From an uncultured Bacteriovoracaceae bacterium (lineage in GTDB: Bacteria > Bdellovibrionota > UBA1018): a DNA stretch of 64,000 nt. The stretch lies in NCBI GenBank assembly GCA_964563795.1, contig CAZLYB010000013.1, positions 3,107-67,106 on the forward strand. The letters run 5' to 3'. The position numbers and the translations under genes are program-made. The first letter of the stretch is position 1, and each line of letters starts with the position of its first letter. The notes beneath the pieces were generated by a model. It was not told where the DNA came from. It made no database searches and saw only the letters and a program-made list of their open reading frames with translations. Of the stretch, positions 31,861 through 50,665 are shown piece by piece.

Positions 31861-32348
31861 GATTTTTCCTTTTTGGAGGGTTCGTCCGCCTGAAAATCCA
31901 GAAGCAGCTCGCCGGGGCTCAGGCTCTGCCCCTCTTGAACGCGGATTGCGGTCACCTTTCCGGCGACAGGGGCGGTGATGGCGAATTCCATCTTCATGGC
32001 TTCCACTCGAATCAAGACCTCATTGGATTGAACGCTTTGCCCAGCCTGAACGAGAATTTTCCTGACTTTCCCCGGAAACTGCGCCCGAAAATCCAAATCC
32101 GCATTCGAGCCCGGGCCCCCTGAAGCGGCGGACGGATCCTCGGAGCTCTCCAGTACCCCCTGCCAAAGCTTGCCATTCCAAAGCAAAGTGGTTTTGCCTT
32201 GAGCGCCTTTCAGCAGGAAAAATCTTCGCCGGACCCCGGAAGCATCCTCGAGGATCTGCCAACCTCCTGGCCTAGTCTGTGAAACAAGAGGAGAGCTCGG
32301 ACGCTCCAATGGCCAGCTTTTCCCGGAGACTTTCCACTGGCGCTTCAT
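31857..32348 (-). CDS. Biotin carboxyl carrier protein (separate BCCP/BT-like subunit of an acyl-CoA carboxylase)
   Basis: Biotinylation motif EAMKME near the C-terminus. The ATG overlaps the biotin carboxylase stop (ATGA). Confidence 0.75.
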   Translation of the reverse strand: MKRQWKVSGKSWPLERPSSPLVSQTRPGGWQILEDASGVRRRFFLLKGAQGKTTLLWNGKLWQGVLESSEDPSAASGGPGSNADLDFRAQFPGKVRKILVQAGQSVQSNEVLIRVEAMKMEFAITAPVAGKVTAIRVQEGQSLSPGELLLDFQADEPSKKEKS

Positions 32349-33787: not shown

Positions 33788-34596
33788 TTTGAAAGCCACG
33801 AGGGTTTGCGCTTTTCGAGGAAAGCGCGCACGCCCTCTTGGCCCTCCGGCGAAACACGAAGATCCGCGAGGATCTTGGCGACGTACTCCAGGGGATCTGG
33901 AAACTGCGCCCGACGCTCCGGCCAGGATAAATCCAAGACCAGGCGCTTGGCCGCGGCGACCGCTTGAGGGCCGCACTGCAAAAGCGCTTCTAATTTGAGT
34001 TCAAACGATTTTTGCAGCTCTTCGGGACGCTCCACGACTTCATGAATGAGGCCGATCGCGAGCGCCCGCTCCGCGCTGAAACGCTCCGCGCTGATAAAAA
34101 GCGCGCGCGAATGAGAGGCGCCGATCTTCGCGACGACGAAAGGGCCGATGCACGCCGGGATGATCCCCAAACGCACTTCGCTCAAACTGAACTGAGTCTC
34201 TCGACTGGCCACCACCACGTCGCAAACGCTGACCAAGCCGACTCCTCCCCCTAAAACCGCGCCATGAACCAAGCCGATCAAGGGCCGGGGGCATTCATTG
34301 ATGATCGAAAAAAGATGAGCGAGCTCCCGGGTATCTTGAAGGTTCTGCTCTCGGCTGAGCTCCACCGATTCACGCATCCAATTGAGATCTCCCCCTGCGC
34401 AAAAAGACGCTCCCGCTCCGCAAAGCACCGTGACTTTGACTTGAGGATCCCTCAGCCGCTCGGAAAAAACCTCGGTGAGTTCTTGGATCATTCGACCATT
34501 GAAGGCGTTGCGCACCTGAGGCCGATTCAGCTCCACCCGCAGGACGCCTGCGCCTGACAGAGTGACTTGAAGAGTCTGATCCGTTTTTTGAGCCAT
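33784..34596 (-). CDS. Enoyl-CoA hydratase/isomerase (methylglutaconyl-CoA hydratase-like)
   Basis: Crotonase-fold motifs LNRPQVRNAF and CGAGASFCAGGDL. The start is moved to MAQKT (34596). Confidence 0.75.
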   Translation of the reverse strand: MAQKTDQTLQVTLSGAGVLRVELNRPQVRNAFNGRMIQELTEVFSERLRDPQVKVTVLCGAGASFCAGGDLNWMRESVELSREQNLQDTRELAHLFSIINECPRPLIGLVHGAVLGGGVGLVSVCDVVVASRETQFSLSEVRLGIIPACIGPFVVAKIGASHSRALFISAERFSAERALAIGLIHEVVERPEELQKSFELKLEALLQCGPQAVAAAKRLVLDLSWPERRAQFPDPLEYVAKILADLRVSPEGQEGVRAFLEKRKPSWLSK

Positions 34597-34649
34597 GCAC
34601 CGTTGAAGGTAACGTCCGCCCCGATCGCTTGCAACTGAGAAAAAATTTT

Positions 34650-34666
34650 GATCTCCTAGGGAGATC
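34650..34666 (+). promoter_or_regulatory. 17-bp perfect palindrome GATCTCCTAGGGAGATC abutting the carboxyltransferase ATG
   Basis: Seen directly. It covers the GGGAGA Shine-Dalgarno and lies in the divergent intergenic region between the hydratase and carboxyltransferase genes. Confidence 0.35.
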
Positions 34667-36253
34667 ATGGCTTTGATCAAATCCCAGATTTCAACGAACT
34701 CCGATGAATTTAAATCCAACGCCGCCCATCACCGAAAGCTCGTCGCTGAATTGAAGGAGCGGGTGGAAAAAAACCGCCTCGGCGGCGGAACGGAAGCGCG
34801 CGCTAAACACCAGTCCCGGAATAAACTTTTAGCCCGAGATCGGATTGAAGCGTTATTGGATCCTGGCTCGCATTTTCTCGAGCTCTCGTCCTTAGCCGCA
34901 TGGGACATGTATGAAGGAAGCGCCCCTGGGGCTGGGATCGTGACGGGCATTGGGTCCGTCCATGGACGCGAAGTGATGGTGGTCGCGAATGACGCCACGG
35001 TGAAAGGGGGGACCTACTTCCCCATGACCGTTAAAAAACACCTCCGCGCCCAGGAGATTGCCCTAGAAAATCGGCTCCCCTGCGTCTATCTCGTGGATTC
35101 GGGGGGAGCCTACCTCCCCCTCCAGAGCGAAGTTTTTCCCGATCGAGACCACTTCGGCCGAATCTTCTACAATCAAGCCCGAATGTCCTCGCAGGGAATC
35201 GCTCAAATCGCCGTCGTCCTGGGTTCCTGTACCGCGGGTGGGGCCTACGTCCCAGCGATGTCCGATGAGACCATCATCGTGCGCAATCAAGGCACCATTT
35301 TTCTGGGAGGACCTCCTTTGGTCCAGGCCGCCACCGGGGAGATCGTGACGGCGGAGGAATTGGGCGGAGGCGATGTCCATTGCCGAACTTCAGGGGTCGC
35401 CGATCACTTGGCTGAAAACGACGAGCATGCGCTCTCGCTCGCCCGCGGAATTTTGGGGCGACTCAACCGAGAAGCTCCCCTTTCGATCGATCGGATTGCC
35501 CCCGAAGATCCGATCTACCCCGCAGAAGAGCTCTACGGCGTCATCCCGCCCGATTACCGAAAGCCATTTGATTCGCGAGAGCTCATCGCCCGGCTCGTCG
35601 ATGGATCCCGCTTTGACGAATTCAAGGCGCTGTATGGATCCACCCTGGTTTGCGGATTCGCGCGGCTCTGGGGGATTCCCGTCGGCATCCTCGCCAACAA
35701 CGGCATCCTGCTCAGCGAAAGTTCGCTCAAAGGCGCCCATTTCATCGAACTCTGCTCTCAACGGAGGATCCCCCTGTTCTTCCTGCAGAACATCACGGGA
35801 TTCATGGTGGGAAAAAAATATGAGTCCGGCGGAATCGCGAAAGACGGGGCAAAACTCGTTACCGCGGTTTCCGGAGCGCCAGTTCCCAAGTTTACCCTGA
35901 TCTTCGGGGGCAGCTTCGGGGCTGGAAACTACGGAATGTGCGGCCGAGCCTATCAGCCCCGTTTCTTGTGGATGTGGCCGGGGGCGAGGATCTCCGTGAT
36001 GGGTGGCGAACAGGCGGCTTCGGTGCTCACTCAAGTGAAGGGCAACCAACTTTCATCCCAGGAGATCGAGAAAATCCAAAAGCCCATTCTCGAGAAATAC
36101 CAGCACGAGGGCAGCGCTTATTTCAGCACCGCGCGGCTCTGGGACGACGGGATCATCGACCCTGCGGAGACGCGCCGAACGCTCTGTCTCGCGCTCTGCG
36201 CTTCATTGAACGCCCCGCTCCCGGAGTCCCGCTTCGGCGTTTTCAGGATGTGA
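34667..36253 (+). CDS. Acyl-CoA carboxylase carboxyltransferase subunit (methylcrotonyl-CoA carboxylase beta-like)
   Basis: N-terminal ...[35 protein letters not shown] and two crotonase-like CT domains over 528 aa. Confidence 0.8.
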
Positions 36254-37380
36254 TGAAAAAGCTCAAGCTCGTCATCAGCGACTTTCACCTCTCGTGCGGC
36301 CGGTGGCTCAAGGATGGGCGAAGGAATCCCCTCGAGGACTTTCATCAGGATGAGAGATTTCGGGAGCTGCTCGAGCATTACAGCACGGGATCTTACGCGG
36401 ACTGGGAAGTCGAGCTCGTCATCAATGGCGATTTCTTTGACCCCCTGGCGGTTCTTCCCATGACGGAGAACGGGAAAGTCGTCATCCTCGATTACCCTGA
36501 GGAAGTCGAGGAAGCGAGCGCCGTGACCAAATTCAAGCTGATCGCCTCGGGTCACCCCATCAGCATCAGGGCACTCGAGGCCTTTTTGGCGCGAGGCAAG
36601 AGCATCACTTTTCGATGGGGAAACCATGACGCGGCGATTCTTTGGCCGGCCGTTCAGATATTCCTAAGAGAACTGCTCCATCCGCCGCGGGCTGAGCAAT
36701 TGGCCTTCCAAAAAGACCCGTATCTCTTCGACCGCATCTGCATCGATCACGGGCATCAGCACGAAATCTTCAACCAATTTGACACTCAGCGCATCTTCAT
36801 CGAGAGAAAGATCAAGGGGGCCAAGAAAACGATCTTGAACCTTCCCTTCGGGAGCTTCTTCGTCTTCGGCTTCATCAGCCGCATCAAGCTCGAAAAACCC
36901 TTTATCACTTACGTCCAACCGCTTCGCAGCTACATCAAGCTCTCGATCTTCATGAATCCTTTATTTTTTATAGTAAATGGATTTAAAGTATCCTGGTTCT
37001 TCTTCAAGATGCGCCTGATCAAGCACCCCATGAGGTTCTCCCGGATCAGAAAAACATTCTTACTGCTGCTTGAAGCGCTCCACCGCCCCTCGCTCGAGAA
37101 GGTCGCCGAGGAGATCTTCAGTTCCCCGGAAGCGGACGCGCTGGGTTATGACACGCTCATCATGGGGCACAATCATCAAGCCATGGTCCGCGTTTTCCCG
37201 GGTGGCAAGCAATACATCAATACGGGCACTTGGACGCCGCTCACGAGCCTCGAGATGTCGACGCTGGGCCATCGCGTCCTACGCACTTACGCGCTGATTG
37301 AATACTTGGATTCAGGCGCCCCACGCTGCAGCCTCAAAGTGTGGAACGGGGAGCCCCGTTCCAACGAGGACTTCAATTAG
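36253..37380 (+). CDS. Metallophosphoesterase (calcineurin-like)
   Basis: The GDFFD and GNHD motifs are present. The ATG at 36253 overlaps the carboxyltransferase stop; the tracked 480-aa ORF is an upstream over-extension. Confidence 0.55.
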   Translation: MKKLKLVISDFHLSCGRWLKDGRRNPLEDFHQDERFRELLEHYSTGSYADWEVELVINGDFFDPLAVLPMTENGKVVILDYPEEVEEASAVTKFKLIASGHPISIRALEAFLARGKSITFRWGNHDAAILWPAVQIFLRELLHPPRAEQLAFQKDPYLFDRICIDHGHQHEIFNQFDTQRIFIERKIKGAKKTILNLPFGSFFVFGFISRIKLEKPFITYVQPLRSYIKLSIFMNPLFFIVNGFKVSWFFFKMRLIKHPMRFSRIRKTFLLLLEALHRPSLEKVAEEIFSSPEADALGYDTLIMGHNHQAMVRVFPGGKQYINTGTWTPLTSLEMSTLGHRVLRTYALIEYLDSGAPRCSLKVWNGEPRSNEDFN

Positions 37381-37667
37381 GGCGTTGACTTGATCGGGAC
37401 GGTCGTATCTGTCACGCCGGGCGTCAGATCCAGCGCAGGGGGCTTGATATTCGAGGGATCAATCGGAACCGGTACGGGTTTCAGAGCCCTTTTTTCCGCA
37501 TCCACGACGGGCAGCCCCGCTGGCACTCTTTTGAGGGTCGTGTTCAGGCTCGGGCAATCCGGATTGCCCGAATTCTCAAATCCCGAGGCTCGACCCGCCG
37601 AGAAAGCGAGACCCGCGAAGAGGGTTAAACCTAGCATCAGTTTCTTGTTCTTCAGATTCATAAACAC
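37377..37667 (-). CDS. Small secreted Pro-rich protein (96 aa)
   Basis: Signal peptide MFMNLKNKKLMLGLTLFAGLAFSA. It is the last gene of the minus-strand tad transcript. Confidence 0.35.
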   Translation of the reverse strand: MFMNLKNKKLMLGLTLFAGLAFSAGRASGFENSGNPDCPSLNTTLKRVPAGLPVVDAEKRALKPVPVPIDPSNIKPPALDLTPGVTDTTVPIKSTP

Positions 37668-37686: not shown

Positions 37687-39369
37687 TTAAAAAGACAGGC
37701 TGACCCCGGCTGGCCGGACGATCTCCAGGAGATTTTGAAAGGCCGTGAACACTTGCGAGGCGACTTTCCTGCCCGCGGAGCTCTCGATCTTCTTCACTTC
37801 GCCGCTGTTCGTGTAGCTCATGGTGATCGTGCCTAAGTTCTCGTACTTGATCTGGGTCGGTTTGGAATTCTCGTCGTACTTGAAATCCATGCGGCGCTTC
37901 GCATTGTCGACCATGGTCTTGATGAGGCCATTGGGGAAGTAAAGCAACCGGACCGCTTTTTTCTCGGAATTTTCAGCGAAAATCATGTTCCCGCTGCCGT
38001 CATACTGGAAGTTCGACCACTGGGTCTGCCTCTTCGAGGCGCGATCCTGCCGCGTGACTCTCTTCACCTTGCCCACCTTGGCATCGTAGGAAAGCTCGGT
38101 GAGCTCAGTCGGGGTGGTCTTGCGGGTCAAATGGCCCTTCGCATCGTAGTCAAACGTGGTTTCTTCGCCTTCTTTCTTGATCGAAACCGGCAGGCCATGA
38201 CTTTCATTGTAAGTGGTCTCGGTCTTTTCCCCGTCGAGCGTGGCGATCAGCTTGTACTGCCACTCCTCCCCGTCCGCGCGCCTTTTGTTGAAGTACTCGT
38301 ACTGGGCGGAAGAGAGCTTGGCTCCCTCCTTGCTCTTCACGTTGACGGCGACGGTGTAATGATTCTTGTCGGAAGAATCGTACTGATAGGAATACTCGGT
38401 CAAGGTCCCATCCCGCTCCTTCACGGTTTTCACGTTCTCGTTCTTATCCACACCGTAGTAGGAGATTTGCAGGGTCGTTTTGTCCGCGTAGCCGATCTCA
38501 TTCATGTTGCGATTCTTGTCGTATTTGTACGAATAGGCGTTTCCGTCAACGTCCTTGCTGTACGTCAGCTCCCCCACGGCCGAATATTGGAAGGAAGCCA
38601 CTTTTTTGTTCTCTCCCTCGATCCTCTCAAGCAAACCCTGCTTATTGTAGGAAAGGAACATCTTGCGGTTGAAGTTATCCACGATCTTGGCGATACGACC
38701 GTCCTTGGAGTAAGTCAGGTCGATCGCATTCTTGTTCCGATCGGAGACTTTGACCAGTTTTCCCTGCTCATTGAAGCGCTCGACTTTGCCGCTCTCAAAA
38801 ACGCGGATGTACCCGCCCGCGACTTTGGTGATGTACTGGGGGCTGAACCGGATGGATTGGAGCTGAACCCCATTGGCCAAGGCGCGCGGCTTCAGGCGCC
38901 CGCTTTGCACGAGTTTTTCCCATTCCCTGCCCCTGAACGAAGCATCCGCTTTCAACTGAACCTTGTATTTCTTGAATTGGTCCGCCGAACCGCTGATGAG
39001 GTTCGCCGCCCTGGCCCCGTTGGCAATCTCCTCCACGGCGCGATCCAAATCCGCCTGGTTGAAATTTCCGGGGCTGAATCGATTCTCGGCGCCGCCGCCG
39101 TACTCATGGACGGTGACGCTCCCATCGGCCGCCACTTTCAGGAAAACCTCGAATTCATTGCCCCATCCCCACCCGAAGATGCCCTTGAAGGAGGTGGAGG
39201 CCTTGGCGTTGTACACCCGTTCGATCTTGGGGTCGAACCCGCCTGGATACACAATATCCGTATAACCTATGAAAAAATTTCCGTTCTTCAAGCTCACGTT
39301 CGCGCGCGCGGCTTGCGCATATAAACCGATCGTCCCCATCGTCAAAAGAATGACGGCTTTCGTTCTCAT
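37687..39369 (-). CDS. YD/RHS-repeat-containing secreted protein
   Basis: A signal peptide, then about 12 degenerate YD repeats (…LTYSKDGRI…, …YDKNRN…, …YDAKGHL…, …YDGSGNM…). There is no obvious C-terminal toxin domain, and the protein ends with Phe. Confidence 0.5.
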   Translation of the reverse strand: MRTKAVILLTMGTIGLYAQAARANVSLKNGNFFIGYTDIVYPGGFDPKIERVYNAKASTSFKGIFGWGWGNEFEVFLKVAADGSVTVHEYGGGAENRFSPGNFNQADLDRAVEEIANGARAANLISGSADQFKKYKVQLKADASFRGREWEKLVQSGRLKPRALANGVQLQSIRFSPQYITKVAGGYIRVFESGKVERFNEQGKLVKVSDRNKNAIDLTYSKDGRIAKIVDNFNRKMFLSYNKQGLLERIEGENKKVASFQYSAVGELTYSKDVDGNAYSYKYDKNRNMNEIGYADKTTLQISYYGVDKNENVKTVKERDGTLTEYSYQYDSSDKNHYTVAVNVKSKEGAKLSSAQYEYFNKRRADGEEWQYKLIATLDGEKTETTYNESHGLPVSIKKEGEETTFDYDAKGHLTRKTTPTELTELSYDAKVGKVKRVTRQDRASKRQTQWSNFQYDGSGNMIFAENSEKKAVRLLYFPNGLIKTMVDNAKRRMDFKYDENSKPTQIKYENLGTITMSYTNSGEVKKIESSAGRKVASQVFTAFQNLLEIVRPAGVSLSF

Positions 39370-39401
39370 GATTGCTCCCCTCACATGGCCTTCCTATAAG
39401 A

Positions 39402-40268
39402 CTATACGTCAATTTTGATGATTTTCATGATGACAAAAAAACCGACCGCCTCCAAGGCGATGATCAGGAGGATGATGAGCCACCCCAGGAACGTGGTAAA
39501 CAAAGGCTGCATAAACTCCGGATCTGTTTGGTAAAAAATGACTCCCAAGACCGGGGGGATCGCCATCACGAAAACGCCCTGGTAAAAGCCCTGCGCGGTC
39601 AGGGCGGCGATCTTGCTCTCCACCTTGATCCTTTCCCGGATCGTGGTCACGATCGTGTCGAAAGTCTCGGCCAAGTTCCCACCGGTCTCCTTGAGGATGT
39701 TGATCGAAGTCACGAACATCTCGACGTCGTCGGACTTGATCCTCCTCCCCAGGTTGCTGAAAGCCTCCTCGAGGGGAACGCCGAGCTTGTTCTGGTTGAG
39801 GATCAAGTTGAACTCCTGCTGGATGGGATTGCTCATTTCTTGCGTCACCAATCCCAGGGACTGCACGATGGAAAGGCCCGACTTCAGCCCGTTGGACATC
39901 AAGCTCAAGGCATCCACCATTTGCAGGATGAACTTTCGGATTCTCCTCCGATAAAGCCAATCCACGATCGGCTTCGGGGCCTTCCAAAACACGATGACGG
40001 TCAAGCTCGAGAAGACCAAGCCCGGGATCCAATTCGGAAGAAAGGCGATCATCACTAAAAAAGCCGGCCCAAGGCTCAGCGCCAGCATGATCTGCGCGAT
40101 CTTGTGGGCGGGGATATCGACGAACATGAGGCTCAGGCGATCCACCACGTAATCCCGGGTCCCCACCGACTGAAACTTCAGCCAATCCAGGAACCTTTTG
40201 TTGTAGTGGTAGGAAATCCCGAAAACCGCCGCTCCGATACTCAGGATTCCGATCACCTTGAAGAACAT
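39402..40268 (-). CDS. tadB: Tad/Flp pilus assembly inner-membrane protein TadB (T2SS-F domain)
   Basis: The T2SS-F-domain pattern …ALSLMSNGLKSGLSIVQSLGLV…GVPLEEAFSNLGRR…GGNLAETFD…IRER… is present, with three TM helices. Confidence 0.75.
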   Translation of the reverse strand: MFFKVIGILSIGAAVFGISYHYNKRFLDWLKFQSVGTRDYVVDRLSLMFVDIPAHKIAQIMLALSLGPAFLVMIAFLPNWIPGLVFSSLTVIVFWKAPKPIVDWLYRRRIRKFILQMVDALSLMSNGLKSGLSIVQSLGLVTQEMSNPIQQEFNLILNQNKLGVPLEEAFSNLGRRIKSDDVEMFVTSINILKETGGNLAETFDTIVTTIRERIKVESKIAALTAQGFYQGVFVMAIPPVLGVIFYQTDPEFMQPLFTTFLGWLIILLIIALEAVGFFVIMKIIKIDV

Positions 40269-40274
40269 CGCCCG

Positions 40275-42452
40275 TCACCCCGCCTTCGCCGTGAAAAGGC
40301 TTCGCGAGATCTTCATTCCCTTGGCTTCCATCTCTTCCACGAACTTCGGAACGAAACCGGTTGGGATCACGCGCCCGATGACTTTTCGCTTTTTATCGAG
40401 GCCTTCCTGCTTGAATACGAAAATATCTTGAAGGCTCACCACCTCGCCCTGAATCCCCACGACCTCGGTGATGTGGGTGATTTTTCGGCTTCCGTCCGAG
40501 AGGCGGCTTTGCTGAATGATGATCCCCACCGCTGAAGCGATGTTCTCGCGGATCGCTTTGGCCGGTAGGCCCAACCCCGCCATCATCACGAGCGTCTCGA
40601 GACGCGCGATGGCTTCGCGGGGATTGTTCGCGTGAAGCGTGGTGAGCGATCCCGAGTGACCGGTGTTCATCGCTTGCAACATATCGAGGGCTTCCTGGCC
40701 GCGGCACTCCCCAACCACGATTCGGTCGGGACGCATTCTCAGGCAGCTTTTCACCAAATCCCGGATGCTCACTTCGCCCTCGCCCTCGATGTTCTTGGGC
40801 CGCGACTCAAGGCGCACCACATGCTCTTGCCCAAGCTGAAGCTCGGCTGAATCCTCAACCGTGATGATTCGCTCAGTGGCGGGGATGAAATTTGAAAGCA
40901 CGTTGAGCAAGGTCGTTTTCCCGGAGCCCGTTCCTCCGGAGACCAGGACATTCAACTTCGCCTCGACGCAGCATCTCAGGAAATCCGCGATCTCGGGAGT
41001 CATCGAGCCAAAGGAGATCAGATCCTTGGCTTCCATTCTTTTTTTGGGGAACTTTCGGATCGTGATGGTCGGGCCCCGGAGCGACAAGGGGGGGATGATG
41101 ATGTGAACACGCGATCCATCGCGCAAACGCGCGTCGACGTACGGCACTTTTTCATCAACGCGGCGCCCGAGCGGCGTCACGATTCGCTCGATCACCGTCA
41201 TCATCTGCTGCTCGCTGGAGAAGGTGACTTTCGAAAGCTGGGGTTTTCCGAGACGCTCGATGTAGATTTGATCCCGGGAATTGACCATGATTTCAGTCAC
41301 GCTCTCATCCGCAAGCAGATCCTCGAGCGGCCCGAGTCCCAGCGCCTCATCGAGGACTTCCTTCACCATCTGAGATTTGAGCTCTCGGCTATTCAGGAGG
41401 GACTCGGTGTCCTCGGCGCCAAGGACGTCGAGGATCGCTTTCTGCGTTTTCTCGCGCAAAACCGCCCTCTGCTTGGGATCGTTCGTGTCAGTATTGGTCC
41501 GCTTGAGGTCCATCTGCTCGACCAAGGCCTTGTGAACCCTCAGCTTCATCGCCGTCCAAGCGTCCAGCGGCGCGGACATGCTGCGATGGATCGGGTTGCC
41601 GTCGGATCGGGCTTGGCCAGATCCATCGGGGCTGGAGCTCGCGACTGCGGCCTGCGATTGCATCTTGGCGGCCACCCCGGTCGGCTTCTTGAGCTTGGCC
41701 AAACTCTCGAGCAGATTGGATTGCTGCATTTTTCGGACGATATCGTGATAAGCGCGCGCGACGGCGGTGTTCGGCGCGGCGATGCAAAGCGGAATGCTCT
41801 TCGCGAGCGAGCTTTCGCAAGTGGGGCCATCCTCGGGAATGGCGGCAAAAATCGACTTGCCCAAGTTTTTTTGAATCAGCTGGGGATTGATGATCGAGTT
41901 TTGGGAATATCGGTTCATGACCACTTGAACCATCTCGGGGGGGAAAAGCAGCTCCTGAATTTTTCCCAGCAGGCGCTTCGTCTGATTAATCACGATGATG
42001 TCGGCGGAGGTCACCACGTAGATGGCGCTCGCGAACTCGAATGCCTTAAGAGCCCATGGATCCGTCCCGCTCCCGCAATCCACGACGGTCCAGCTGAAGA
42101 CGTTGGTGACGGACTTCAAGAATCGTCCGAGCCCGTCCAAATCCAGGTCGCGCGCCACGATCGCGTCGCGGGGGGCGCCGATGTAACTGTAACCCGCCTG
42201 CGCGTTCACCATGAAGGGGGCGAGCGTCTTGGGATCCACCGGCCCCGGCGGCATCTTGCTCACGTCAATGATGCTCTTGGGGGGATTTTGATTCAAAATG
42301 ACGTTTTGATCGCCGAGGCTATTAAGGTCGAGATCAACGATCAATGGTCTTTGTTTAAATTCTTGGAGATAAGCGATGGCCAGGTTCGCGGCGAACACGC
42401 TTTTTCCGACCCCGCCTTTTCCGCCGACCACTGCGATGATATGCCCAGGCAT
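40275..42452 (-). CDS. Fusion of a CpaE/TadZ-like ParA/MinD ATPase domain and a CpaF/TadA secretion ATPase
   Basis: The N-terminus carries the deviant Walker [15 protein letters not shown] of ParA/MinD/CpaE. The C-terminal half carries the VirB11/CpaF core [15 protein letters not shown]…RLESRP…VGECRG with His- and Asp-boxes. It is one uninterrupted 725-aa ORF. Confidence 0.8.
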
Positions 42453-42469: not shown

Positions 42470-44206
42470 TCACTTCATCTTGACCCGGAAATTCCGCTTG
42501 AGGTCTTCCGTCCCATCCGAGGCGTTCTCGATGATTTGCGGAGTGATGAAAATCACGAATTGGGATTTCGACTTCCTGTAGTTCTTGGACCGCAGCAGCG
42601 TGAAGAGCGGATCGGTCCCTTCGCTGAACGACCCGGGGCTCGGATCATCCTTATTGAAGTCCGTGCCCACCGTGGTCGCGCTCACTCCGGCGATCGCGGC
42701 GCTTTCCGCTGATTTGACGTAAAGCTTGGTATCCACCCGGTGAGTCGCGGTGATGGGTTGCGTCCCTGACGCCGGAGTCCGACCCACGAGGTTGGTTTGG
42801 TTCACCTTGATATCGACTTGGATGTCCTCGCTTTGCCCCAGGATCGTGGGCGTCACGCCGAGCTCCAGCCCCACGTCCTGCTTGCCCGCCGAGACCTGCC
42901 CATTGGCTCCCTGGATCAAGAAAGGGAATTGGGTTCCCTCAAACAGGCTCGCGGCTTGGCCGCTTCTGACGACCAAGGTCCCGGTTTTCAAAATCCTGGC
43001 ATAGCCCGCGGCCTGGGCGCTTTGAAGCTTCGGCAATAAGCTTGAGATGGTCGCGCTGAACGAAACTCCCCCGCTTCCGGTTGTGGTGGTCGTTGCTCCG
43101 GCCGTCTGGCCGTTGCTGAAAGTGACCTCGGGACCGCTGGAGGTGAACCCCGGTTGCCATTTAAAGCCAAAGAGCCGGTTGTAATCCTTGGAAAGCTCCA
43201 CGAAGTAAGCCGTGATTCGAACCAGCTTATCCTGTTTTTTCGGGGGAGGCGCGTTCACGATGATGAAAGTCTGCACCAGATTCCGCCCGGGAAGCCGCGT
43301 CGCCTGGCCCTCCGCCTCGAACCGGCCCAAGGGATTGGCGGGTTTGATTTCAGGGAGATAGAGCAGCGCGATGTTCTTCGCACGGTTGGCTTGATCAATG
43401 GTATCGACGGTCCCTTCCAAGAAGATCAGTCCATTGACCACTCTCGTCTTCACGCCGGGGGCGAACACATTGATGTCTTCTTGAATTTTTTTGGCCAGGA
43501 ATTGAAGCGCCAGCGGCGAGAGCGTCGTGAGATTCATGATGAAATCCCCGTAGGCCTTGTCCCCCACGACGGTCAGAAGGCGAGCGTAGTCATTGGGGAC
43601 GAGGATCTCCCCTTCCAAAATGACTTTAGGCCCCACGATGCGGATGTCCAAACCTTCCACGTCGCGAAGCAAAGAGCGTACTTCACCAGCCACTCGAAGC
43701 AGATTGGAACCCGTGATCCGGGCGTTGAAAATCAGGCGAATCGTCCCATCCGCGTCACGTACCGTGATGTTTGTGTCCCCCGGTTTCAAGGGCTTGAAAA
43801 CGATCTGGCGCTTTTGACCGATTTTTACGAGCGTAGTCGCGAGCAGGGTGGGATTTCCGATGGTGATCCCGCTGACTTCGGGACTCACGTCAAAATTGAG
43901 ATCGACGGCTTTGTCTTCCCCCGAAGTCAGCAGCAGCCTCCTGCGATCCGCATTCGCCTCCGACTCATCATTGGTCAATCGGGATCGCCCCACGGATCTC
44001 GCACGGCGGGAGAATCGGGGCAGGGATTGAACAGGAACGGATTTAACTTCGGGCAAAGGCTGCGACTGCGGCATGGGAGCGGGCGGGACTTGAGGCGCGG
44101 GCTCCGTCACTAAGGACCCCCCGGATGGCGGATCCTCGGCGTGGAGCTCGCCGCCCGGCGCGGCGATCAGCAGCAAGAAGATCGGGAGAAGATTCCATCG
44201 TTTCAT
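42470..44206 (-). CDS. cpaC: Tad secretin CpaC/RcpA
   Basis: A signal peptide and the secretin C-domain …FVIFITPQII… . The protein is 578 aa. Confidence 0.8.
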   Translation of the reverse strand: MKRWNLLPIFLLLIAAPGGELHAEDPPSGGSLVTEPAPQVPPAPMPQSQPLPEVKSVPVQSLPRFSRRARSVGRSRLTNDESEANADRRRLLLTSGEDKAVDLNFDVSPEVSGITIGNPTLLATTLVKIGQKRQIVFKPLKPGDTNITVRDADGTIRLIFNARITGSNLLRVAGEVRSLLRDVEGLDIRIVGPKVILEGEILVPNDYARLLTVVGDKAYGDFIMNLTTLSPLALQFLAKKIQEDINVFAPGVKTRVVNGLIFLEGTVDTIDQANRAKNIALLYLPEIKPANPLGRFEAEGQATRLPGRNLVQTFIIVNAPPPKKQDKLVRITAYFVELSKDYNRLFGFKWQPGFTSSGPEVTFSNGQTAGATTTTTGSGGVSFSATISSLLPKLQSAQAAGYARILKTGTLVVRSGQAASLFEGTQFPFLIQGANGQVSAGKQDVGLELGVTPTILGQSEDIQVDIKVNQTNLVGRTPASGTQPITATHRVDTKLYVKSAESAAIAGVSATTVGTDFNKDDPSPGSFSEGTDPLFTLLRSKNYRKSKSQFVIFITPQIIENASDGTEDLKRNFRVKMK

Positions 44207-44209: not shown

Positions 44210-45049
44210 TTACCTACGCCCATTGGCGGGAGCCCGCGGCGCGCGCGAGTAATCCGCCCCCAGCACATCGGAAAACAAGCTCGAACCCAAATTGACCCTC
44301 TCGGTGTCATCATTATTGCGCAGTGAAAGCGTAAGCGCGTGATCGCTATTGGCCATCACGAGCGCGAGCGCTTGCGCTTGGTTGGGATCCACTTCAAGAG
44401 TGATGGAGCCGAAAGAGGAATCCTCGTTCAAATTCTTGATCCTCTCCTTGCCGCCGAAAAGATCCGGCTCGATCAAGCGAGGCACGTTGTTGGTGACGTT
44501 TTTTCCCACGGAGAGGACGACCACGTCTTGCAGGAAGGTTTTCGCGATTTTCCCTTCTTTTCCCCCGCCAAGATCCAGGACAGCGATCAGATCGACCCGA
44601 TCGCCGGGCTTCACCAATTTTGAAACGCCGCTGATCTCATCGATGCGGATCGCGAAGGCGCGTTTTCCCGGGGTGATTTGAGGCGCGAGGCCCGTGCGCA
44701 TATTGGGCTCCGTCACTTTGTTCTGGGTGACTTGCTCGCCTTTTTTGATGGGAACCAGGGCGACGGTCCCGGCCATGCTCTTAAGGCCCCGTGTCGTCTC
44801 CTTATCCTCTTCCTTCTTCTCAAAATAAATGGCGTTCGGCTCCAAAAACCGCTTTGGGATTCGCTCGATGCTCAAAACGGTTTCGTTGATCGTTTCAAGC
44901 TCGCGAATGTCCTTCTTCGCCTTGATGACGAGGACTTCGGCGCCGAATTTCCGGCTGGCCTCTTCTTCGATGCTGGAAACGTAACTCATGACGAAGAACA
45001 CCGCCAAAGCGGCCATCAAAAGCGACAGGGTGAGCGCGCGATTATTCAT
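44210..45049 (-). CDS. cpaB: Flp pilus assembly protein CpaB/RcpC
   Basis: A TM anchor MNNRALTLSLLMAALAVFFV, followed by SAF and RcpC domains. The start is placed at Met39 of the tracked ORF; Met25 is also possible. Confidence 0.7.
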   Translation of the reverse strand: MNNRALTLSLLMAALAVFFVMSYVSSIEEEASRKFGAEVLVIKAKKDIRELETINETVLSIERIPKRFLEPNAIYFEKKEEDKETTRGLKSMAGTVALVPIKKGEQVTQNKVTEPNMRTGLAPQITPGKRAFAIRIDEISGVSKLVKPGDRVDLIAVLDLGGGKEGKIAKTFLQDVVVLSVGKNVTNNVPRLIEPDLFGGKERIKNLNEDSSFGSITLEVDPNQAQALALVMANSDHALTLSLRNNDDTERVNLGSSLFSDVLGADYSRAPRAPANGRR

Positions 45050-45617
45050 ATTGGAGCGGGCCTCCGCAAATCTGGAACTGGCTTGCCTCATCGAGGCGGT
45101 AAAGCGCGGTTGCTTTGGAATCCGGGCCGTAAGGGGGACCTGAGAGCGGCAAGATGGCGGCATCCCCGGAACCGTTTCGAACGACGTTCGCCTGCGTGCA
45201 CAGGGTCACCGTGTTCCTCACGCGCACGAGCGCGCGTTCCGCTGGCTCTTGCCCGGTCTCATCCTGCGCGGGCGCGCGCCTTCGAGTGACGTTCTTGGTG
45301 GGGGCTTTCGGGATGTACCGTTCGCCGGGCTCACTGGGGCTGGCGTTCTCCGCAACGCCGATCACCATCTGATTGTAACTTTTTGCAGTCAATTCGGCCT
45401 CCCGCAGGGAGAGATAGGGATACACGGGACTATTGTAGGTGAGCCAGAGCGCCTGGGCGCGGGCGTACTGCTGATTCACGATCCCCACTTGAATCGCCGT
45501 ATTCACGCGGATGAGAATCAAGGCGAGCGTGAGCATCATCGGAAGCATCAAAAGAAATTCGATGACGCTTTGGCCCGATTGATCCAAGATCAATGCTCCA
45601 GACGGGTTAACACCCAT
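45042..45617 (-). CDS. TadE-like pseudopilin
   Basis: The N-terminal prepilin-like segment QSGQSVIEFLLMLPMMLTLAL contains the G/xxxxEF motif. Confidence 0.55.
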   Translation of the reverse strand: MGVNPSGALILDQSGQSVIEFLLMLPMMLTLALILIRVNTAIQVGIVNQQYARAQALWLTYNSPVYPYLSLREAELTAKSYNQMVIGVAENASPSEPGERYIPKAPTKNVTRRRAPAQDETGQEPAERALVRVRNTVTLCTQANVVRNGSGDAAILPLSGPPYGPDSKATALYRLDEASQFQICGGPLQYE

Positions 45618-46161
45618 TATCGATCACTCCCTTCAGGCGATCCATTTCCTGCCGGCATTCCTCGACAGTGGGCTCTCGAAGCAGCCAACTCTCGGAAATG
45701 AGCCGCAGCGTGTTGACTGAATCCTGACCGGAGGACTTCCTTCCCGCGCCGGCCAAAGGGATCAGAAACACCCTGCTCTTAAATGCGTATCGGACTCCCT
45801 GAAGCCAACTGAAGTACTGGTTGTCTTCCTGGTACTGCGAAGGGGGCTTGATGCGCAGCCCCGAAACCTCCTGATCGCTGCCCCACGCCGCATCCCCCTT
45901 CGCGATGAAGGGGAATCGATCCTGGGAAGCCTGGGACTGGCCTCGCTTCAAAGTGCGGCTGATGACGTCAGCGGCGCGCTGGAGCTGATCGTCTTTGCCA
46001 GGGCCAGCTGAAAGATAGGCGCGGGCCGACATGAAAGTGGCGTAATGCGCGTAGTTCCCGAACCCAAAAACTAAAGAAAGTTGATAGAAAAAAAAGACGA
46101 ACCCCATCAGGAACATCAAGGTCAACGCGAATTCCACGGTGGACTGGCCTTTGGAGTTCAT
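45607..46161 (-). CDS. TadE/TadF-like pseudopilin
   Basis: N-terminal MNSKGQSTVEFALTLMFLMGFVFFF. Confidence 0.55.
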   Translation of the reverse strand: MNSKGQSTVEFALTLMFLMGFVFFFYQLSLVFGFGNYAHYATFMSARAYLSAGPGKDDQLQRAADVISRTLKRGQSQASQDRFPFIAKGDAAWGSDQEVSGLRIKPPSQYQEDNQYFSWLQGVRYAFKSRVFLIPLAGAGRKSSGQDSVNTLRLISESWLLREPTVEECRQEMDRLKGVIDNGC

Positions 46162-46469
46162 CGCCCCCCCGTCCGGGTCGGACTGATGAACATGCGAAAA
46201 TTGCCGCTTCCCGCCTGAGGTCTCGCGCGCGGATGATACTGGACGTCCTGGCCGCCCTCTTCCTCATACCCCACCGCCTTCGGATGCCCGTATTGGTAAG
46301 TACGCGCGAAATCGCTCGAGATGGGCTTCATGAGGCGGGCCTCGATATTCATCTTCCTGAGGCTCGCGGCGATCATCGCGAAGAAGCCAGCGATGATCGC
46401 AATGAGCAGGATGTACTCGGTGATCGCCTGCCCGCTTTGATTTTTTACGGCCAAATCCATTTTTCCCAC
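46158..46469 (-). CDS. Pilin-like protein (Flp/TadE-like N-terminus)
   Basis: NQSGQAITEYILLIAIIAGFFAMIA carries the Flp-type G/xxxxEY cleavage motif. At 103 aa it is longer than a typical Flp pilin. Confidence 0.45.
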   Translation of the reverse strand: MGKMDLAVKNQSGQAITEYILLIAIIAGFFAMIAASLRKMNIEARLMKPISSDFARTYQYGHPKAVGYEEEGGQDVQYHPRARPQAGSGNFRMFISPTRTGGR

Positions 46470-47014
46470 CCTAAATGCCCGAATCCTTCCTTGAGCGGAT
46501 GCACGCCCCCCGCAACGAGCAGCGCCGCCGCCCCGATCGCGATTCCAAGGGGTATCTTTAGGGATCGATCAAATTGAAAATTTACTAAAGGGGGCAGGCG
46601 CCATAGGACAGCCTGCATGAGGGCGCGGCATTTAATAAGAAACTGCGAAGCTCTCCCTCGCCAAATCAATGACAGGGCGGCGAGCGCTCCCCCGAACAAA
46701 ACCCCCATCACCGCCACTTCAGCACAGTAAAGAGGACCACCCCACGCTCCGAACGCCATGAGCAGTTTCACGTCGCCCGCTCCCAAGTGCCGGAGGGCGT
46801 AAATCCACCCATACAGAAGAAAACCCGCCAAGATTCCCAATGCTGAAAATCCGGCGCCGCTCCATCCTCCCTGCCCCCAATGGAACAAAAGACCGAGCAT
46901 GAGCGAAGGAATCGTCAACGCATTGACGATTTTACCCCAAAGAAGATCGGTGATCGCGGCGAGAACCGCAGTGAGAATGAGGAAGTAAAACGGGATTTCA
47001 ACTGTCCCAGACAT
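46445..47014 (-). CDS. tadV: Prepilin peptidase (TadV/CpaA, A24 family)
   Basis: Polytopic, with the catalytic LGAGDVKLL motif. The start is placed at MSGTVEIPFYF. Confidence 0.7.
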   Translation of the reverse strand: MSGTVEIPFYFLILTAVLAAITDLLWGKIVNALTIPSLMLGLLFHWGQGGWSGAGFSALGILAGFLLYGWIYALRHLGAGDVKLLMAFGAWGGPLYCAEVAVMGVLFGGALAALSLIWRGRASQFLIKCRALMQAVLWRLPPLVNFQFDRSLKIPLGIAIGAAALLVAGGVHPLKEGFGHLGWEKWIWP

Positions 47015-47222
47015 AGAGCGGCGCTCGTCCGGTTTTGAGGTCCTTTTCAAGCTGGCCCCCGAGCTTCAGCATGCCTTGGTCCAGCGTCTTGATGATCGTT
47101 CGGGAGATGGCGACCGCGCTGACGACCACGGCCGAGAGGATCAATAGATATTCAACGGTGCCCTGACCGTCTTCTTCCAACCAGAATTCACGCCAGAATG
47201 AGCGAGCCGATTCCTTCAGCAA
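46998..47222 (-). CDS. flp: Flp-family pilin
   Basis: The leader is followed by GQGTVEYLLILSAVVVSAVAI (Flp motif). Confidence 0.75.
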   Translation of the reverse strand: MLKESARSFWREFWLEEDGQGTVEYLLILSAVVVSAVAISRTIIKTLDQGMLKLGGQLEKDLKTGRAPLYVWDS

Positions 47223-47236: not shown

Positions 47237-47470
47237 TTATTGATCCAACGGATTCGTGGCATCAATCATATTTTTTTCGGTTCGATCGAGGATCGTGCTC
47301 AGGGAAGAGCCGAATTTCGCGCGGAACTTCAGCGCGACCATCACGACGATGGCCAAAATCAAGATGTACTCGGTCGTCGTCTGGCCTTCTTCATCAGACC
47401 AAAACGCGGAGAGTCGCTTTTTCCATGCTGCGAGCGCCATAGATACCCCTGAATTCATGCCTCTACCCAA
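47237..47470 (-). CDS. flp: Flp-family pilin (second copy)
   Basis: EEGQTTTEYILILAIVVMVAL carries the Flp motif. It lies 14 nt upstream of the first copy and is preceded by an AT-rich 76-nt intergenic region. Confidence 0.75.
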   Translation of the reverse strand: MGRGMNSGVSMALAAWKKRLSAFWSDEEGQTTTEYILILAIVVMVALKFRAKFGSSLSTILDRTEKNMIDATNPLDQ

Positions 47471-47546: not shown

Positions 47547-48284
47547 TCAGAAAAAGATCAATGTTGCCCAGAGGTTATCCTCGCGGCCTTGCTCGCCCTG
47601 GAGCTCATTCAAAGCCTCCAAAGCCGCTCCTCGCCCCATGAAGAATGCTTCCCAAAGCTTCTGACGCTCCCCCTCCAAAAGCCCGTCCGTGTGGAGGAAC
47701 AACCCATCCCCGGAATGGATCCGGCACTCCAGGATCTCGGGCTCCAAATCTTCATTGAGGCCCAGGGCCGCCAAAGGGACGCCCTCCTCGCACAGCGTCG
47801 CTTCTTTCTTGAAGGGATCGAGTAATCGCCCATAGCTTCTGGGCGTCGTCAGCTCCGCCATCCCGCTCTGCCTGAAAATCCAAGCCTGGCAGGAGCCGAT
47901 GGAACCCAGGGAGAGCTGATCCCCGTCCAAGAAGCCCGCCACCAAGGATGCGCCCGCCTTTTCATGAACGCTTCGATTCCTGTTCTTCGACAGAAGCTTG
48001 CGGTTGGAGTGAACAAGCGCGTTGAAAAGCACGTTCCCTGCGAGTGAATAATAATGGCGAATCACGAAAGGCAGCGTCGCCTCGCGATCCCCTACCTCCT
48101 TCACAAGAAACGCCTGCACCGCCTCGCACGCCAGCTTGGAAGCGGCCGATCCCGCAGATGGGCCTCCGAATCCATCAGCCACCGCGAAAACTCCTCTTTC
48201 GGCCGAAGCCCATCCGAAATCCTCCTGAGCGGGCCTCTGGCCAACCGCCGAGCAATGGGCGATCTCGGAAATCAATCGGCTCAT
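47547..48284 (-). CDS. PP2C-family Ser/Thr protein phosphatase
   Basis: The motifs QRPAQEDFGW, VADGFGG and LHTDGL follow PP2C metal-binding motifs 1, 2 and 8. Confidence 0.7.
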   Translation of the reverse strand: MSRLISEIAHCSAVGQRPAQEDFGWASAERGVFAVADGFGGPSAGSAASKLACEAVQAFLVKEVGDREATLPFVIRHYYSLAGNVLFNALVHSNRKLLSKNRNRSVHEKAGASLVAGFLDGDQLSLGSIGSCQAWIFRQSGMAELTTPRSYGRLLDPFKKEATLCEEGVPLAALGLNEDLEPEILECRIHSGDGLFLHTDGLLEGERQKLWEAFFMGRGAALEALNELQGEQGREDNLWATLIFF

Positions 48285-50665
48285 TCCGCCTCCCCTTCTT
48301 CAATGACGGCGCTCGCGGGATAGCGCGAGAGCTTGCGCGAGGCGCGCTCATGATAAAGGTCATCCTTGGGGACGAGCGCCAGGATCTCCTTGTATTTTTT
48401 CTGAGCCGTCGAGAAATCACTGTAGCTCTCCGCCAGGACCGCCTCCGTGTAAACCCCCTTGGCCCTCTCATGAAGCGCAGAACGGGTTCGCTCCACGCCC
48501 TGTTGGCTCGCCGAGAAGGAGGGATCGATGATGCTGGCCCGCTGATACAGCTGATAGGCTTGCGGGATGTTTCCCGAGTCCTCATTCTGTTTCGCGGCTT
48601 GCACGATCGGATCCCGCTTGGACTGGATCGCCTGCAAGGAGGCTTGAATCAACGCCTTGGAATGCCTCAGTAGCTTCGCGTCGCTTGCGCCGATTTCCTT
48701 AATTTTATAAAATCTCGAAATCGCGTCGCGGTATCTGCCCCGCCGCCTCAAGCTGAGGCCTTCCTTCAGCAAGGCCCACCCCTTTGCGTTGATTTCTCTT
48801 TGGACTTCCCGCTCTTGCTCGAGCAGTCTTCGCTTGGTCTCATCCGCTTCGATTTCTTGCCGCCATTGAGCGACCAAGGCGTTCTCCGGATCAAGCGCCA
48901 GGATCTGGCCGAAAATCTCCTTGGCGATGTCGTACTGCCGCTTGGACATCTTCAATGAGGCTTCTTCGGTTAATTGCCCCACTTTGACTTTGATGCGCTC
49001 TTCCTCTTCCTTCTTTCGAGCCTCTTCAAGCTGAGCCTCCCTTTTTTGACGGCCTTCCTGGGCGTATCGCTCGATCTCGCGGGAGTCCTTGTAGTCGGGG
49101 ACGAGCTTGAAAATTTTCTCGATCTCATAGAGGGCTCGGTCGAAATCACCGGCCTTGTAATATTCAAACGCCCGATCATGCTGCTCCTGGACGAATTTTT
49201 TTTGCTCTGCGGTCAGCGACTCAAAGGTCGCTTGCTTCGCGGCATCAGCCGCGTTCTCGGCGGACGGCTTCTTTTGAGGCGCATCGATGACATCCTCATC
49301 CCCCGGTCCGAAATACCAGATGAAGGCGCAAGTCAGGGCGATCACCAGATATTGCTTCGGCTTGGAAAGATTCCTGAATTTTTCGATCAATCCCTTGGGT
49401 TTTGCCTGCTCTTGCGGGGCTCCCACTCCGGTGATCCCTGCGATCGAAGAATCACCGACCGCCGCTGAAGAAAAAGGCAGCGCGGACGGCGGCGGCATCA
49501 TCGGCGAATGGTACGCGGCATTGAAATTCTCAAAAGCCGAATCCGCCTGGATTTCCTCCTCCTGAGGCAAAGAGACGAGCGCCGCCTCCTGCTTGAGGTA
49601 ATCCTTGCTATGGGCCTGGAATTCAAACTCGACGTTTCCAATTCGGATGCGGTCGCCGGCCGAGAGCTCCTGCTCCTGAATTTTGACTTGATTCACGTAG
49701 GTTCCGTTGGAGGAACCAAGATCCTTGATCAAAAACCGGTGCTGATTCCTGAGGATGACCGTATTTTTTCGGGAAGCCTTTTTATCGTTCAATACGATAT
49801 CGCACGTCTTCCCACGCCCCAGGCTCACTTCATCCTTGATGATTTCATACTCAGTGACGTTCGCGGTGCCTGGGTCAAAAAGCAGCTTCGAATCGACTCT
49901 CGCCACTGAGACGACTTGGGTATGCTCGCCCGTGGGGGCATCCAGAGCTGGAACTTCAGGCGCCTCCAAATCAATCCCCGTTCCCTCCTCGTGCGCGTCG
50001 GCGGAAGCCTCGGCGAGGAGCGGGGGATCCTCAAGCGTGAGACCCGGGACTTCATTCGTCTTTGAATCTTCTTGGGAATCTTCTTGGGAATCTTCTTGGG
50101 AATTTTCGGGAGAAGCCGTGATCTCCTCCTGAACAGGGGCGTTCTCCAGAGGCGCGGGGGAGTCCTCAAAAAAGGCCACCGGCTGCGTCGCTTCGGGATC
50201 TTCGGATTTCAGCGGTCCTGATTCAAACGGCAACGGCTCGCTGGGCGTCTCCAGCGGGGCTTCGGCGGCGACTTCCTGAAAAGGCGAAGTGATCTCGCCG
50301 GAATCCGGATGATCCGTCGCGGGAGCAGCTGATTCAACGGCGGATTCCGGCGCCGGCTCGGAGAACGGGGAGGCTTCGAGCGAAAGCCTCGCCAAATAGG
50401 GGCCGATCGCGATGACATCGCCTGACTTCAAAATGGCCTTCGTGCACTCCTGCCCATTGATGGTCAGAGGCGCGAATTCGCTCTGGCGCTCCACTTGAAT
50501 TCCGCCAGTGACGCGGCTAAAGCGGGCGTGTTCCCGCGAGATCGCGCGATCATCCAGCCGGATCACGCAGCCTTCGGCCCTGCCCACCAGGACATCGCCT
50601 TCAATCGGCACGCTCTTGATCTGCTCGCCATCCTTTAAGATGGTCAGAATCGCGGCCGCGCCCAT
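48281..50665 (-). CDS. Membrane-anchored protein with two FHA domains, an acidic repeat linker and a C-terminal TPR/coiled-coil region
   Basis: FHA-1 at the N-terminus (…VGRAEGCVIRLDDRAISREHARF…). FHA-2 lies around residues 260-340 (GRGKTCDIVLNDKKASRKNTVI…LGSSNGTYVN). One TM segment (LVIALTCAFIWYF) is followed by TPR-like repeats. Confidence 0.7.
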   Translation of the reverse strand: MGAAAILTILKDGEQIKSVPIEGDVLVGRAEGCVIRLDDRAISREHARFSRVTGGIQVERQSEFAPLTINGQECTKAILKSGDVIAIGPYLARLSLEASPFSEPAPESAVESAAPATDHPDSGEITSPFQEVAAEAPLETPSEPLPFESGPLKSEDPEATQPVAFFEDSPAPLENAPVQEEITASPENSQEDSQEDSQEDSKTNEVPGLTLEDPPLLAEASADAHEEGTGIDLEAPEVPALDAPTGEHTQVVSVARVDSKLLFDPGTANVTEYEIIKDEVSLGRGKTCDIVLNDKKASRKNTVILRNQHRFLIKDLGSSNGTYVNQVKIQEQELSAGDRIRIGNVEFEFQAHSKDYLKQEAALVSLPQEEEIQADSAFENFNAAYHSPMMPPPSALPFSSAAVGDSSIAGITGVGAPQEQAKPKGLIEKFRNLSKPKQYLVIALTCAFIWYFGPGDEDVIDAPQKKPSAENAADAAKQATFESLTAEQKKFVQEQHDRAFEYYKAGDFDRALYEIEKIFKLVPDYKDSREIERYAQEGRQKREAQLEEARKKEEEERIKVKVGQLTEEASLKMSKRQYDIAKEIFGQILALDPENALVAQWRQEIEADETKRRLLEQEREVQREINAKGWALLKEGLSLRRRGRYRDAISRFYKIKEIGASDAKLLRHSKALIQASLQAIQSKRDPIVQAAKQNEDSGNIPQAYQLYQRASIIDPSFSASQQGVERTRSALHERAKGVYTEAVLAESYSDFSTAQKKYKEILALVPKDDLYHERASRKLSRYPASAVIEEGEAE
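50064..50107. repeat. 12-bp tandem repeat (GAATCTTCTTGG x3 plus a partial copy) encoding SQEDSQEDSQED
   Basis: Seen directly. It is in frame within the FHA protein's acidic linker. Confidence 0.7.

Follow-up and report, generated by a model that had tools for sequence, protein, structure and literature searches.

In characterised Tad systems, TadZ/CpaE and TadA/CpaF are separate proteins, and their genes follow one another in an operon whose canonical order, flp-tadV-rcpCAB-tadZABC, contains the segment rcpA-tadZ-tadA-tadB. We report here on a single gene that encodes both, found in a stretch of 64,000 nucleotides (nt) from an uncultured Bacteriovoracaceae bacterium (GenBank assembly GCA_964563795.1, contig CAZLYB010000013.1, positions 3,107 to 67,106 of the forward strand), the whole of which is called the window below. 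Our reading, to which we give a probability of roughly 85% as a whole explanation, is that its product is the TadZA of an uncultured member of the Bdellovibrionota, that is, a TadA/CpaF motor of a Tad (Flp, type IVc) system carrying an N-terminal TadZ/CpaE that is joined to it by a disordered tether of about 40 residues.

The closest described system is that of Bdellovibrio bacteriovorus, for which the same architecture was reported, and named TadZA, in a preprint of 8 July 2026 by Tesseur, Denise, Santin and Laloux (bioRxiv 10.64898/2026.07.08.737194); according to its authors, the fusion had already been predicted earlier. In that bacterium, TadZA consists of an ARD-less TadZ, a linker and TadA; it is essential for prey invasion, no deletion of tadZA could be obtained, and the silencing of tadZA-tadB stops invasion; TadZ plus linker is both necessary and sufficient to bind the polar hub RomR, and TadZA moves dynamically, with a RomR-dependent bias to the invasive pole (bioRxiv 10.64898/2026.07.08.737194). 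The operon was described by Capeness et al. in 2013 (PMC3818213) as comprising Bd0108 (hit), Bd0109 (RHS/YD repeat), Bd0110 and Bd0111 (TadA). Bd0111 is also listed as an ortholog of Myxococcus xanthus KilF in the supplement of the 2021 eLife paper on the Kil system, where KilF is given as FHA plus P-loop NTPase and KilD as FHA plus TPR.

By its architecture and by the positional correspondence of the two loci, the window protein would be the TadZA ortholog of Bd0111. Interpreting it as a fusion is right but not new: this is the normal form of the lineage, already characterised in B. bacteriovorus, so that what is striking beside textbook Tad systems is yet the standard state in these bacteria. 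Our additions are modest and concern how far the fusion extends within the phylum and outside it, the canonical Walker A motif that it carries and a KilD-like FHA/PP2C module by the locus.

Organization of the Fused Gene

The gene is one uninterrupted open reading frame (ORF) at 40275-42452 on the minus strand, with an ATG start, 725 codons and a stop codon at 40275-40277; the plus-strand reading of the same interval is riddled with stops. A preliminary description of this DNA, made from the letters alone, had claimed a single 725-aa ORF with a continuous frame, which is what we find, and had given no strand. The ORF divides as follows:

41682-42452, minus strand: TadZ-like ParA/MinD ATPase domain (aa 1-257), from Pfam, NCBIfam, sequence matches to PDB entries, AlphaFold2 with Foldseek, and invariant residues
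41562-41681, minus strand: low-complexity flexible linker (aa 258-297), from AlphaFold2 pLDDT and an alignment of 28 fusions
40275-41561, minus strand: CpaF/TadA motor ATPase (aa 298-725), from phmmer matches to CpaF structures, Pfam T2SSE and AlphaFold2 secondary structure

Both ends of the protein are recognised by family models. In Pfam, CbiA/ParA (the CobQ/CobB/MinD/ParA nucleotide-binding domain) matches aa 4-214 with an E of 2e-12, and T2SSE matches aa 371-648 with an E of 1e-65 (222 bits against a cutoff of 24.9); in NCBIfam, MinD-type models match aa 5-264 and TadA/VirB11/TrbB-type models aa 337-668. The AlphaFold2 model of the whole protein has a confident alpha/beta N-domain (residues 1-260, pLDDT 80-94) and a disordered linker, with pLDDT of about 30 at residues 269-295. 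Across the 28 aligned fusions, this linker varies in length and sequence and shows no conservation; a conserved helix, LLxxLxxLKKP, precedes it, and the CpaF helical bundle, conserved at its start, follows it.

The C-Terminal Motor

With the solved CpaF of Caulobacter crescentus (9e24/8rjf), phmmer gives an alignment of fusion residues 297-712 to CpaF residues 80-488, at an E of 2e-125. Judged by sequence, the C-terminal part is therefore a complete Tad motor and has the helical bundle ahead of the N-terminal domain too. The AlphaFold2 model places this bundle at 298-371, the N-terminal domain at 375-470 and the C-terminal ATPase domain at 480-720; the Walker A of the motor reads GGTGSGKTT (aa 506-514) and ends the VirB11-type motif of 12 residues at aa 503-514 on which the preliminary description had based a CpaF/TadA assignment for the C-terminal ~400 aa. 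This assignment is borne out by the CpaF and T2SSE matches alike, and the genomic context is that of a TadA/CpaF, with a secretin, RcpC, TadB, Flp pilins and a prepilin peptidase as neighbours.

The N-Terminal ATPase Domain

For the N-terminal ~260 aa, with a 14-residue motif at aa 5-18, a CpaE/TadZ-like ParA/MinD domain had been proposed; the motif, Pfam, NCBIfam and a Foldseek search with an AlphaFold2 model all agree with it, and the domain searches do recognise a ParA/MinD fold. The Walker A reads GGKGGVGKS (aa 10-18), in which K12 is the signature lysine and K17 the P-loop lysine; the other motifs are switch I (D40/D42), Walker B (D125) and IPED (205-208), and the last residues of the domain (aa 247-257) form the conserved helix LLxxLxxLKKP. 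An alignment with Pyrococcus MinD gives counterparts of the signature lysine, the P-loop Lys/Ser, the switch I and Walker B aspartates and IPED. The signature-lysine deviant Walker A (KGGxG) of TadZ/CpaE is present; a receiver-like ARD in front of the domain is absent, the ATPase domain beginning at residue 4, and the atypical TadZ Walker A without P-loop lysine (KGGxGx[ST]) is not the case here, K17 being kept. K12, K17, S18, D40, D42, D125 and D208 are invariant in the 28 fusions, which come from two clades, and this invariance of nucleotide-binding residues predicts a working ATP switch in the TadZ half.

Modelled alone, aa 1-262 reach a pLDDT of 87.5. The best Foldseek matches of this model are 3EA0, then FlhG, MinD, Soj and FleN, with 3EA0, FlhG, MinD and Soj at TM 0.72-0.81 and, for 3EA0, TM 0.80/0.87 with an rmsd of 2.1-2.3 Å; 3EA0 is the best solved match by sequence too (profile E 4e-39).

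Residues 1-260 were also used as a HMMER query against 1.84 billion representatives. The top matches are fusions of 718-777 aa, in which the domain starts at residue 1 and is 27-48% identical; next come many proteins of about 380-430 aa, aligned from residue 130-160 on, at about 28-32% identity and E of 1e-20 to 1e-30. Among the nearest unfused relatives, most of the eight checked with NCBIfam have a receiver-like N-terminal region before a MinD-like ATPase, which is the architecture of TadZ/CpaE. Of 64 relatives with an ATPase domain that begins no earlier than residue 90, the P-loop lysine is missing from 27, a known peculiarity of TadZ, and GK[ST] is kept in the other 37.

Origin of the Fusion and Identity of Its N-Domain

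As a background sample, we took 80 listed loci from a contig scan with the generic Walker A pattern [GA]K[GD]GVGKS[VT]; three of them are true relatives. Only L004 (Nocardioides) and L005 (Actinomycetota), which hold the two best separate homologues (profile E of about 1e-37 to 1e-39), have a cpaF immediately downstream on the same strand. The weaker matches in the sample, of ParA/MinD/Mrp type, are all without an adjacent cpaF; at L023, two weak T2SSE-type matches (E ~1e-9) lie 3-5 kb away on the opposite strand. Taken together, these separate homologues upstream of cpaF, the canonical gene order and the order secretin-fusion-tadB found here support an origin within the operon: most likely, tadZ and tadA were neighbours in a canonical rcpA-tadZ-tadA-tadB segment and merged when the boundary between them was lost.

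Several points weigh against our reading. The solved TadZ of Eubacterium rectale, 3FKQ, matches the N-domain weakly (profile E 8e-9, positions 3-149 only), is outscored by MinD, FlhG and 3EA0 when the profile is compared with solved structures, and is not among the 50 best Foldseek matches listed; the domain has no ARD and retains a canonical P-loop lysine that many TadZ have lost, and in sequence it has more of a MinD/FlhG look than 3FKQ does. The orthology with Bd0111 would rest on architecture, synteny and the 48-51% identity to Bdellovibrionales members rather than on a direct alignment, and the localisation, ATPase activity, dimerisation and RomR binding that we would ascribe to the window protein are taken over from its relatives.

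One may ask whether the N-domain is a MinD/FlhG-type ATPase recruited independently, resembling TadZ in role only, a scenario that we hold to be improbable. It would account for best solved matches that are 3EA0, archaeal and bacterial MinD and FlhG/FleN while 3FKQ is weak, for a canonical KGGVGKS, for the absence of an ARD and for MinD models being the best matches in NCBIfam. Those models (TIGR01968 and TIGR01969), however, score 62-65 bits, far under their cutoffs of 201-213, and the domain has no terminal MinD-type membrane-targeting tail and runs on into the linker and CpaF; the scans of window ORFs turned up neither minC nor minE. The homologues that answer best outside the fusions are, moreover, those with an N-terminal extension of about 130-160 residues (receiver-like in most of the eight checked); they score about 100-122 bits, MinD and 3EA0 about 50-57 bits; the two best separate matches sampled sit directly upstream of cpaF, and the N-domain stands exactly at the place of tadZ in canonical operons. 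As for the canonical Walker A, GK[ST] is also kept in 37 of 64 extension-bearing relatives, this feature being a variable one in the TadZ family.

An identity as the cell-division MinD itself was rejected, on scores of 62-65 bits against cutoffs of 213 and 202, on the locus context and on the continuation of the domain into CpaF.

A second scenario takes the N-domain for a degenerate, catalytically dead scaffold that merely tethers the motor, without nucleotide-dependent switching. For classical TadZ, an atypical Walker A and a low ATPase activity have indeed been reported (Denise et al. 2019, PMC6668835); some fusions also carry an altered motif, GARDGVGKT in P0137, GGKDGVGKS in P0155 and GGKSGVGTS in P0158. 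Yet the signature lysine, the P-loop Lys/Ser, both switch I aspartates and the Walker B aspartate are invariant in the window protein and in 28 of 28 aligned members, which argues for selection on nucleotide binding, and probably on hydrolysis, in this lineage, and leaves a dead scaffold with a slim chance here.

If TadZA of the window works as its relatives do, its C-terminal part would form a hexameric motor docked on TadB/TadC and drive extension and retraction of the Flp pilus, as in the CpaF family. The N-domain would bind ATP and dimerise through the signature lysine, acting as an ATP-dependent switch in the manner of ParA/MinD proteins; together with the linker, it may bind a cellular landmark (RomR in Bdellovibrio) and so place the motor, and the whole machine, at one site, as in B. 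bacteriovorus. The fusion would fix a 1:1 ratio of positioning domain to motor subunit and couple localisation to the motor in one polypeptide.

Distribution of the Fusion

The preliminary description had called for a survey of the phylogenetic distribution; in protein cluster and HMMER searches, with the taxonomic labels of metagenome-assembled genomes (MAGs) taken as given, the fusion is found in several classes of Bdellovibrionota and in Myxococcota-labelled MAGs. A word-indexed search of 5.8 billion proteins returned at least 120 clusters at 77-83% identity, all of 712-746 aa, with a query coverage of 97-100% and nearly all with both domains; they stem from NCBI, JGI, ENA and Logan assemblies, and their named members are Bdellovibrionota, Bdellovibrionia, Oligoflexia or Bdellovibrio sp. 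In total, more than 300 independent protein clusters, with lengths of 715-775 aa, have the co-linear fusion; their sources are MAGs of Bdellovibrionota and some with a Myxococcota label. Going by cluster names, there are fusions in Bacteriovoracia, Bdellovibrionales, Pseudobdellovibrionaceae and unclassified Bdellovibrionota. Three clades can be told apart: that of the window; that of Bdellovibrionales/Pseudobdellovibrionaceae (P0135 and at least 120 further clusters); and that of P0137, which includes Myxococcota-labelled MAGs and in which P0137 has its signature motif altered to GARDGVGKT.

The nearest genome match to the window protein is labelled Oligoflexia and has an N-domain 71% identical to it; the overall identity to Bdellovibrionales members is 48-51%. 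No named B. bacteriovorus protein is among the best 120 matches listed for P0135. In a Myxococcota-labelled MAG (L082; GCA_024712085.1, 4415-13128), a 730-aa fusion lies between the secretin and TadB in a compact tad locus, with a 660-aa Ser/Thr protein kinase encoded beside the pilus genes; another T2SSE ATPase, which is not fused, is encoded 2.6 kb downstream. The fusion is probably not restricted to Bdellovibrionota. Its conservation across several classes of this phylum and in Myxococcota-labelled MAGs indicates that it is under selection and not the peculiarity of one species; it is old, and the standard state in at least one phylum.

The idea that an indel error in assembly or sequencing turned separate tadZ and tadA genes into one has next to no chance of being true and was rejected: the window does apparently come from a metagenome-assembled contig, and a low-complexity linker is a sequence prone to indel errors, but the co-linear fusion recurs with equal length and domains in at least 120 clusters at 77-83% identity from many independent assemblies, it is found in the window's clade and in two further, more distant ones, contigs of more than 1 Mb (L081, L083) being among those that carry it, and B. 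bacteriovorus makes the full-length fusion protein (bioRxiv 10.64898/2026.07.08.737194).

Nor does the window hold a second copy of the N-domain: an unfiltered profile search (--max) over all 659 six-frame segments of the 64 kb matches the fusion ORF only (E 2e-105, the runner-up being at E = 1), and a Walker A motif scan of the window returns the fusion site only. The earlier claim that the locus has no separate tadZ can thus be extended to the whole 64-kb window.

Genes of the tad Locus

The fusion belongs to a complete tad locus on the minus strand, given here in the direction of transcription:

53683-54600, minus strand: TadC-like second T2SSF platform protein (Pfam)
51651-53285, minus strand: FHA and PAS protein, 544 aa (Pfam)
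50665-51711, minus strand: FHA protein, 348 aa (Pfam)
48281-50665, minus strand: FHA and TPR protein, KilD-like, 794 aa (Pfam)
47547-48284, minus strand: PP2C phosphatase (Pfam)
47237-47470 and 46998-47222, minus strand: two Flp-type pilin genes, 74 and 77 aa (translations)
46445-47050, minus strand: prepilin peptidase, Peptidase_A24 (TadV/CpaA; Pfam E 4e-12)
45042-46469, minus strand: three small ORFs of 191, 184 and 103 aa, the middle one (45607-46161) with a weak Pfam TadE match
44210-45163, minus strand: RcpC/CpaB (Pfam RcpC; TIGR03177 at 148 bits against a cutoff of 71)
42470-44206, minus strand: secretin RcpA/CpaC, directly upstream of the fusion (Pfam Secretin E 2e-17)
40275-42452, minus strand: the fusion TadZA, between secretin and TadB
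39402-40268, minus strand: TadB-type platform protein (T2SSF), directly downstream of the fusion (Pfam E 3e-18)
37687-39384, minus strand: DUF6531/RHS-YD repeat protein, 565 aa (Pfam)
37377-37667, minus strand: 96-aa ORF with a signal-peptide-like start, placed after the RHS/YD gene

The order secretin-fusion-tadB-RHS-small ORF is common to the window, L081, L083 and the published locus Bd0111-Bd0108. L081 is a marine Bdellovibrionales contig of 1 Mb whose fusion has an N-domain 33-35% identical to that of the window; its genes keep the order of the window from the pilin genes down to a DUF6531/RHS protein of 565 aa and an ORF of 102 aa. L083, a 1.7-Mb contig from the window's own clade, shares the FHA genes and the downstream acyl-CoA carboxylase genes, and has in the PP2C position a gene with no Pfam match on record; L001 also has FHA, FHA-TPR and PP2C genes, and the FHA/PP2C module is without counterpart in the Bdellovibrionales locus L081. 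The pair formed by the RHS/YD protein and the small ORF follows tadB in L001, L081 and L083 with nearly equal lengths, the small ORF being barely conserved (27-29% identity). A secretin occupies the matching position in L081, L082 and L083.

The two pilins carry motifs of the G/xxxxEY type, GQGTVEY and GQTTTEY, followed by a hydrophobic helix, and a Flp1_like Pfam gene is found at the matching place in L083. The three small ORFs, which have counterparts at the same position in L081 and L083, are probably minor pilins. Two starts deserve a comment. The ORF listed for the prepilin peptidase begins with TTG and shares about 50 nt with the 3' end of the ORF of the second pilin, which makes it probable that the peptidase truly starts further downstream; the RcpC/CpaB ORF (44210-45163) overlaps the preceding 191-aa ORF (45042-45617) by about 120 nt, and, because the TIGR03177 match begins only at residue 44, the true start of CpaB is probably further downstream than the first ATG as well. 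The TadC-like gene is at the far upstream end of the locus, some 13 kb from tadB. Genes for acyl-CoA carboxylase and related functions flank the locus on both sides: the set at 30934-36253 (HMG-CoA lyase-like, biotinyl carrier, biotin carboxylase, enoyl-CoA hydratase and carboxyltransferase) is syntenic with L083, and the set at 56640-61825 has methylmalonyl-CoA mutase, biotin carboxylase and carboxyltransferase.

The presence, in the window's clade, of a TadZA together with a Kil-like FHA/PP2C module suggests a link between phospho-signalling and motor placement. A broader idea, which is possible but which we consider doubtful, is that predatory "delta-type" lineages share a Tad/Kil-like motor with an exchangeable N-terminal targeting module (TadZ in Bdellovibrionota and some Myxococcota-labelled MAGs, FHA in KilF), and that in the window's clade the placement or activity of TadZA is gated by Ser/Thr phosphorylation, for instance of the Ser/Thr-rich tether, besides a polar landmark. 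If true, such phospho-gating would add to TadZA a level of regulation that has not been described for it. The Pfam scans of the window ORFs gave no Ser/Thr kinase to pair with the FHA and PP2C genes.

Comparison with Known Systems

By its fold, the N-domain is best compared with 3EA0, a ParA-family ATPase of Chlorobium tepidum, which is likewise a single ATPase domain of about 245 aa without ARD; 3EA0, however, is a stand-alone protein with an atypical Walker A, KGGDGGS, that lacks the P-loop lysine, whereas the N-domain of the window has K17. 3EA0 itself looks like an ARD-less TadZ-type protein.

The canonical Tad systems of Aggregatibacter actinomycetemcomitans and C. crescentus have the same two activities in the same operon order, but as two proteins; in the window, they are on one polypeptide, the ARD of TadZ/CpaE is missing and the P-loop lysine is retained. 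The disordered N-terminus of C. crescentus CpaF (before residue ~80) is replaced here by the TadZ domain and its tether.

KilF (MXAN_3107), the motor ATPase of the Tad-like killing apparatus Kil of M. xanthus, is, like the window fusion, a CpaF-type motor with an extra N-terminal module, and the Kil locus is rich in FHA genes, including the FHA and TPR protein KilD, which resembles the window ORF at 48281-50665. The modules differ, being FHA in KilF and a ParA/MinD ATPase in the window, and Kil assembles at sites of prey contact, not at the pole.

The closest likeness is with TadZA (Bd0111) of B. bacteriovorus, which has, as in the window, an ARD-less TadZ with a Walker A, a flexible linker and a C-terminal TadA, encoded between rcpA and tadB and followed by an RHS/YD protein and a small secreted protein. 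The 565-aa RHS/YD and 96-aa ORFs of the window are the positional equivalents of Bd0109 and Bd0108 (the host-interaction, or hit, locus), and it is on the strength of this positional match to Bd0111-Bd0108 that we call the protein of the window a TadZA ortholog. Both belong to the phylum Bdellovibrionota, the window representing a different, uncultured lineage. The loci also differ in content: a prepilin peptidase and a TadC-like gene, reported absent from tad locus 1 of B. bacteriovorus, where tadC is at a separate locus and the tad loci have no TadV (bioRxiv 10.64898/2026.07.08.737194), are both in the window locus, which, unlike that of Bd0111, also has an FHA / FHA-TPR / PP2C module upstream.

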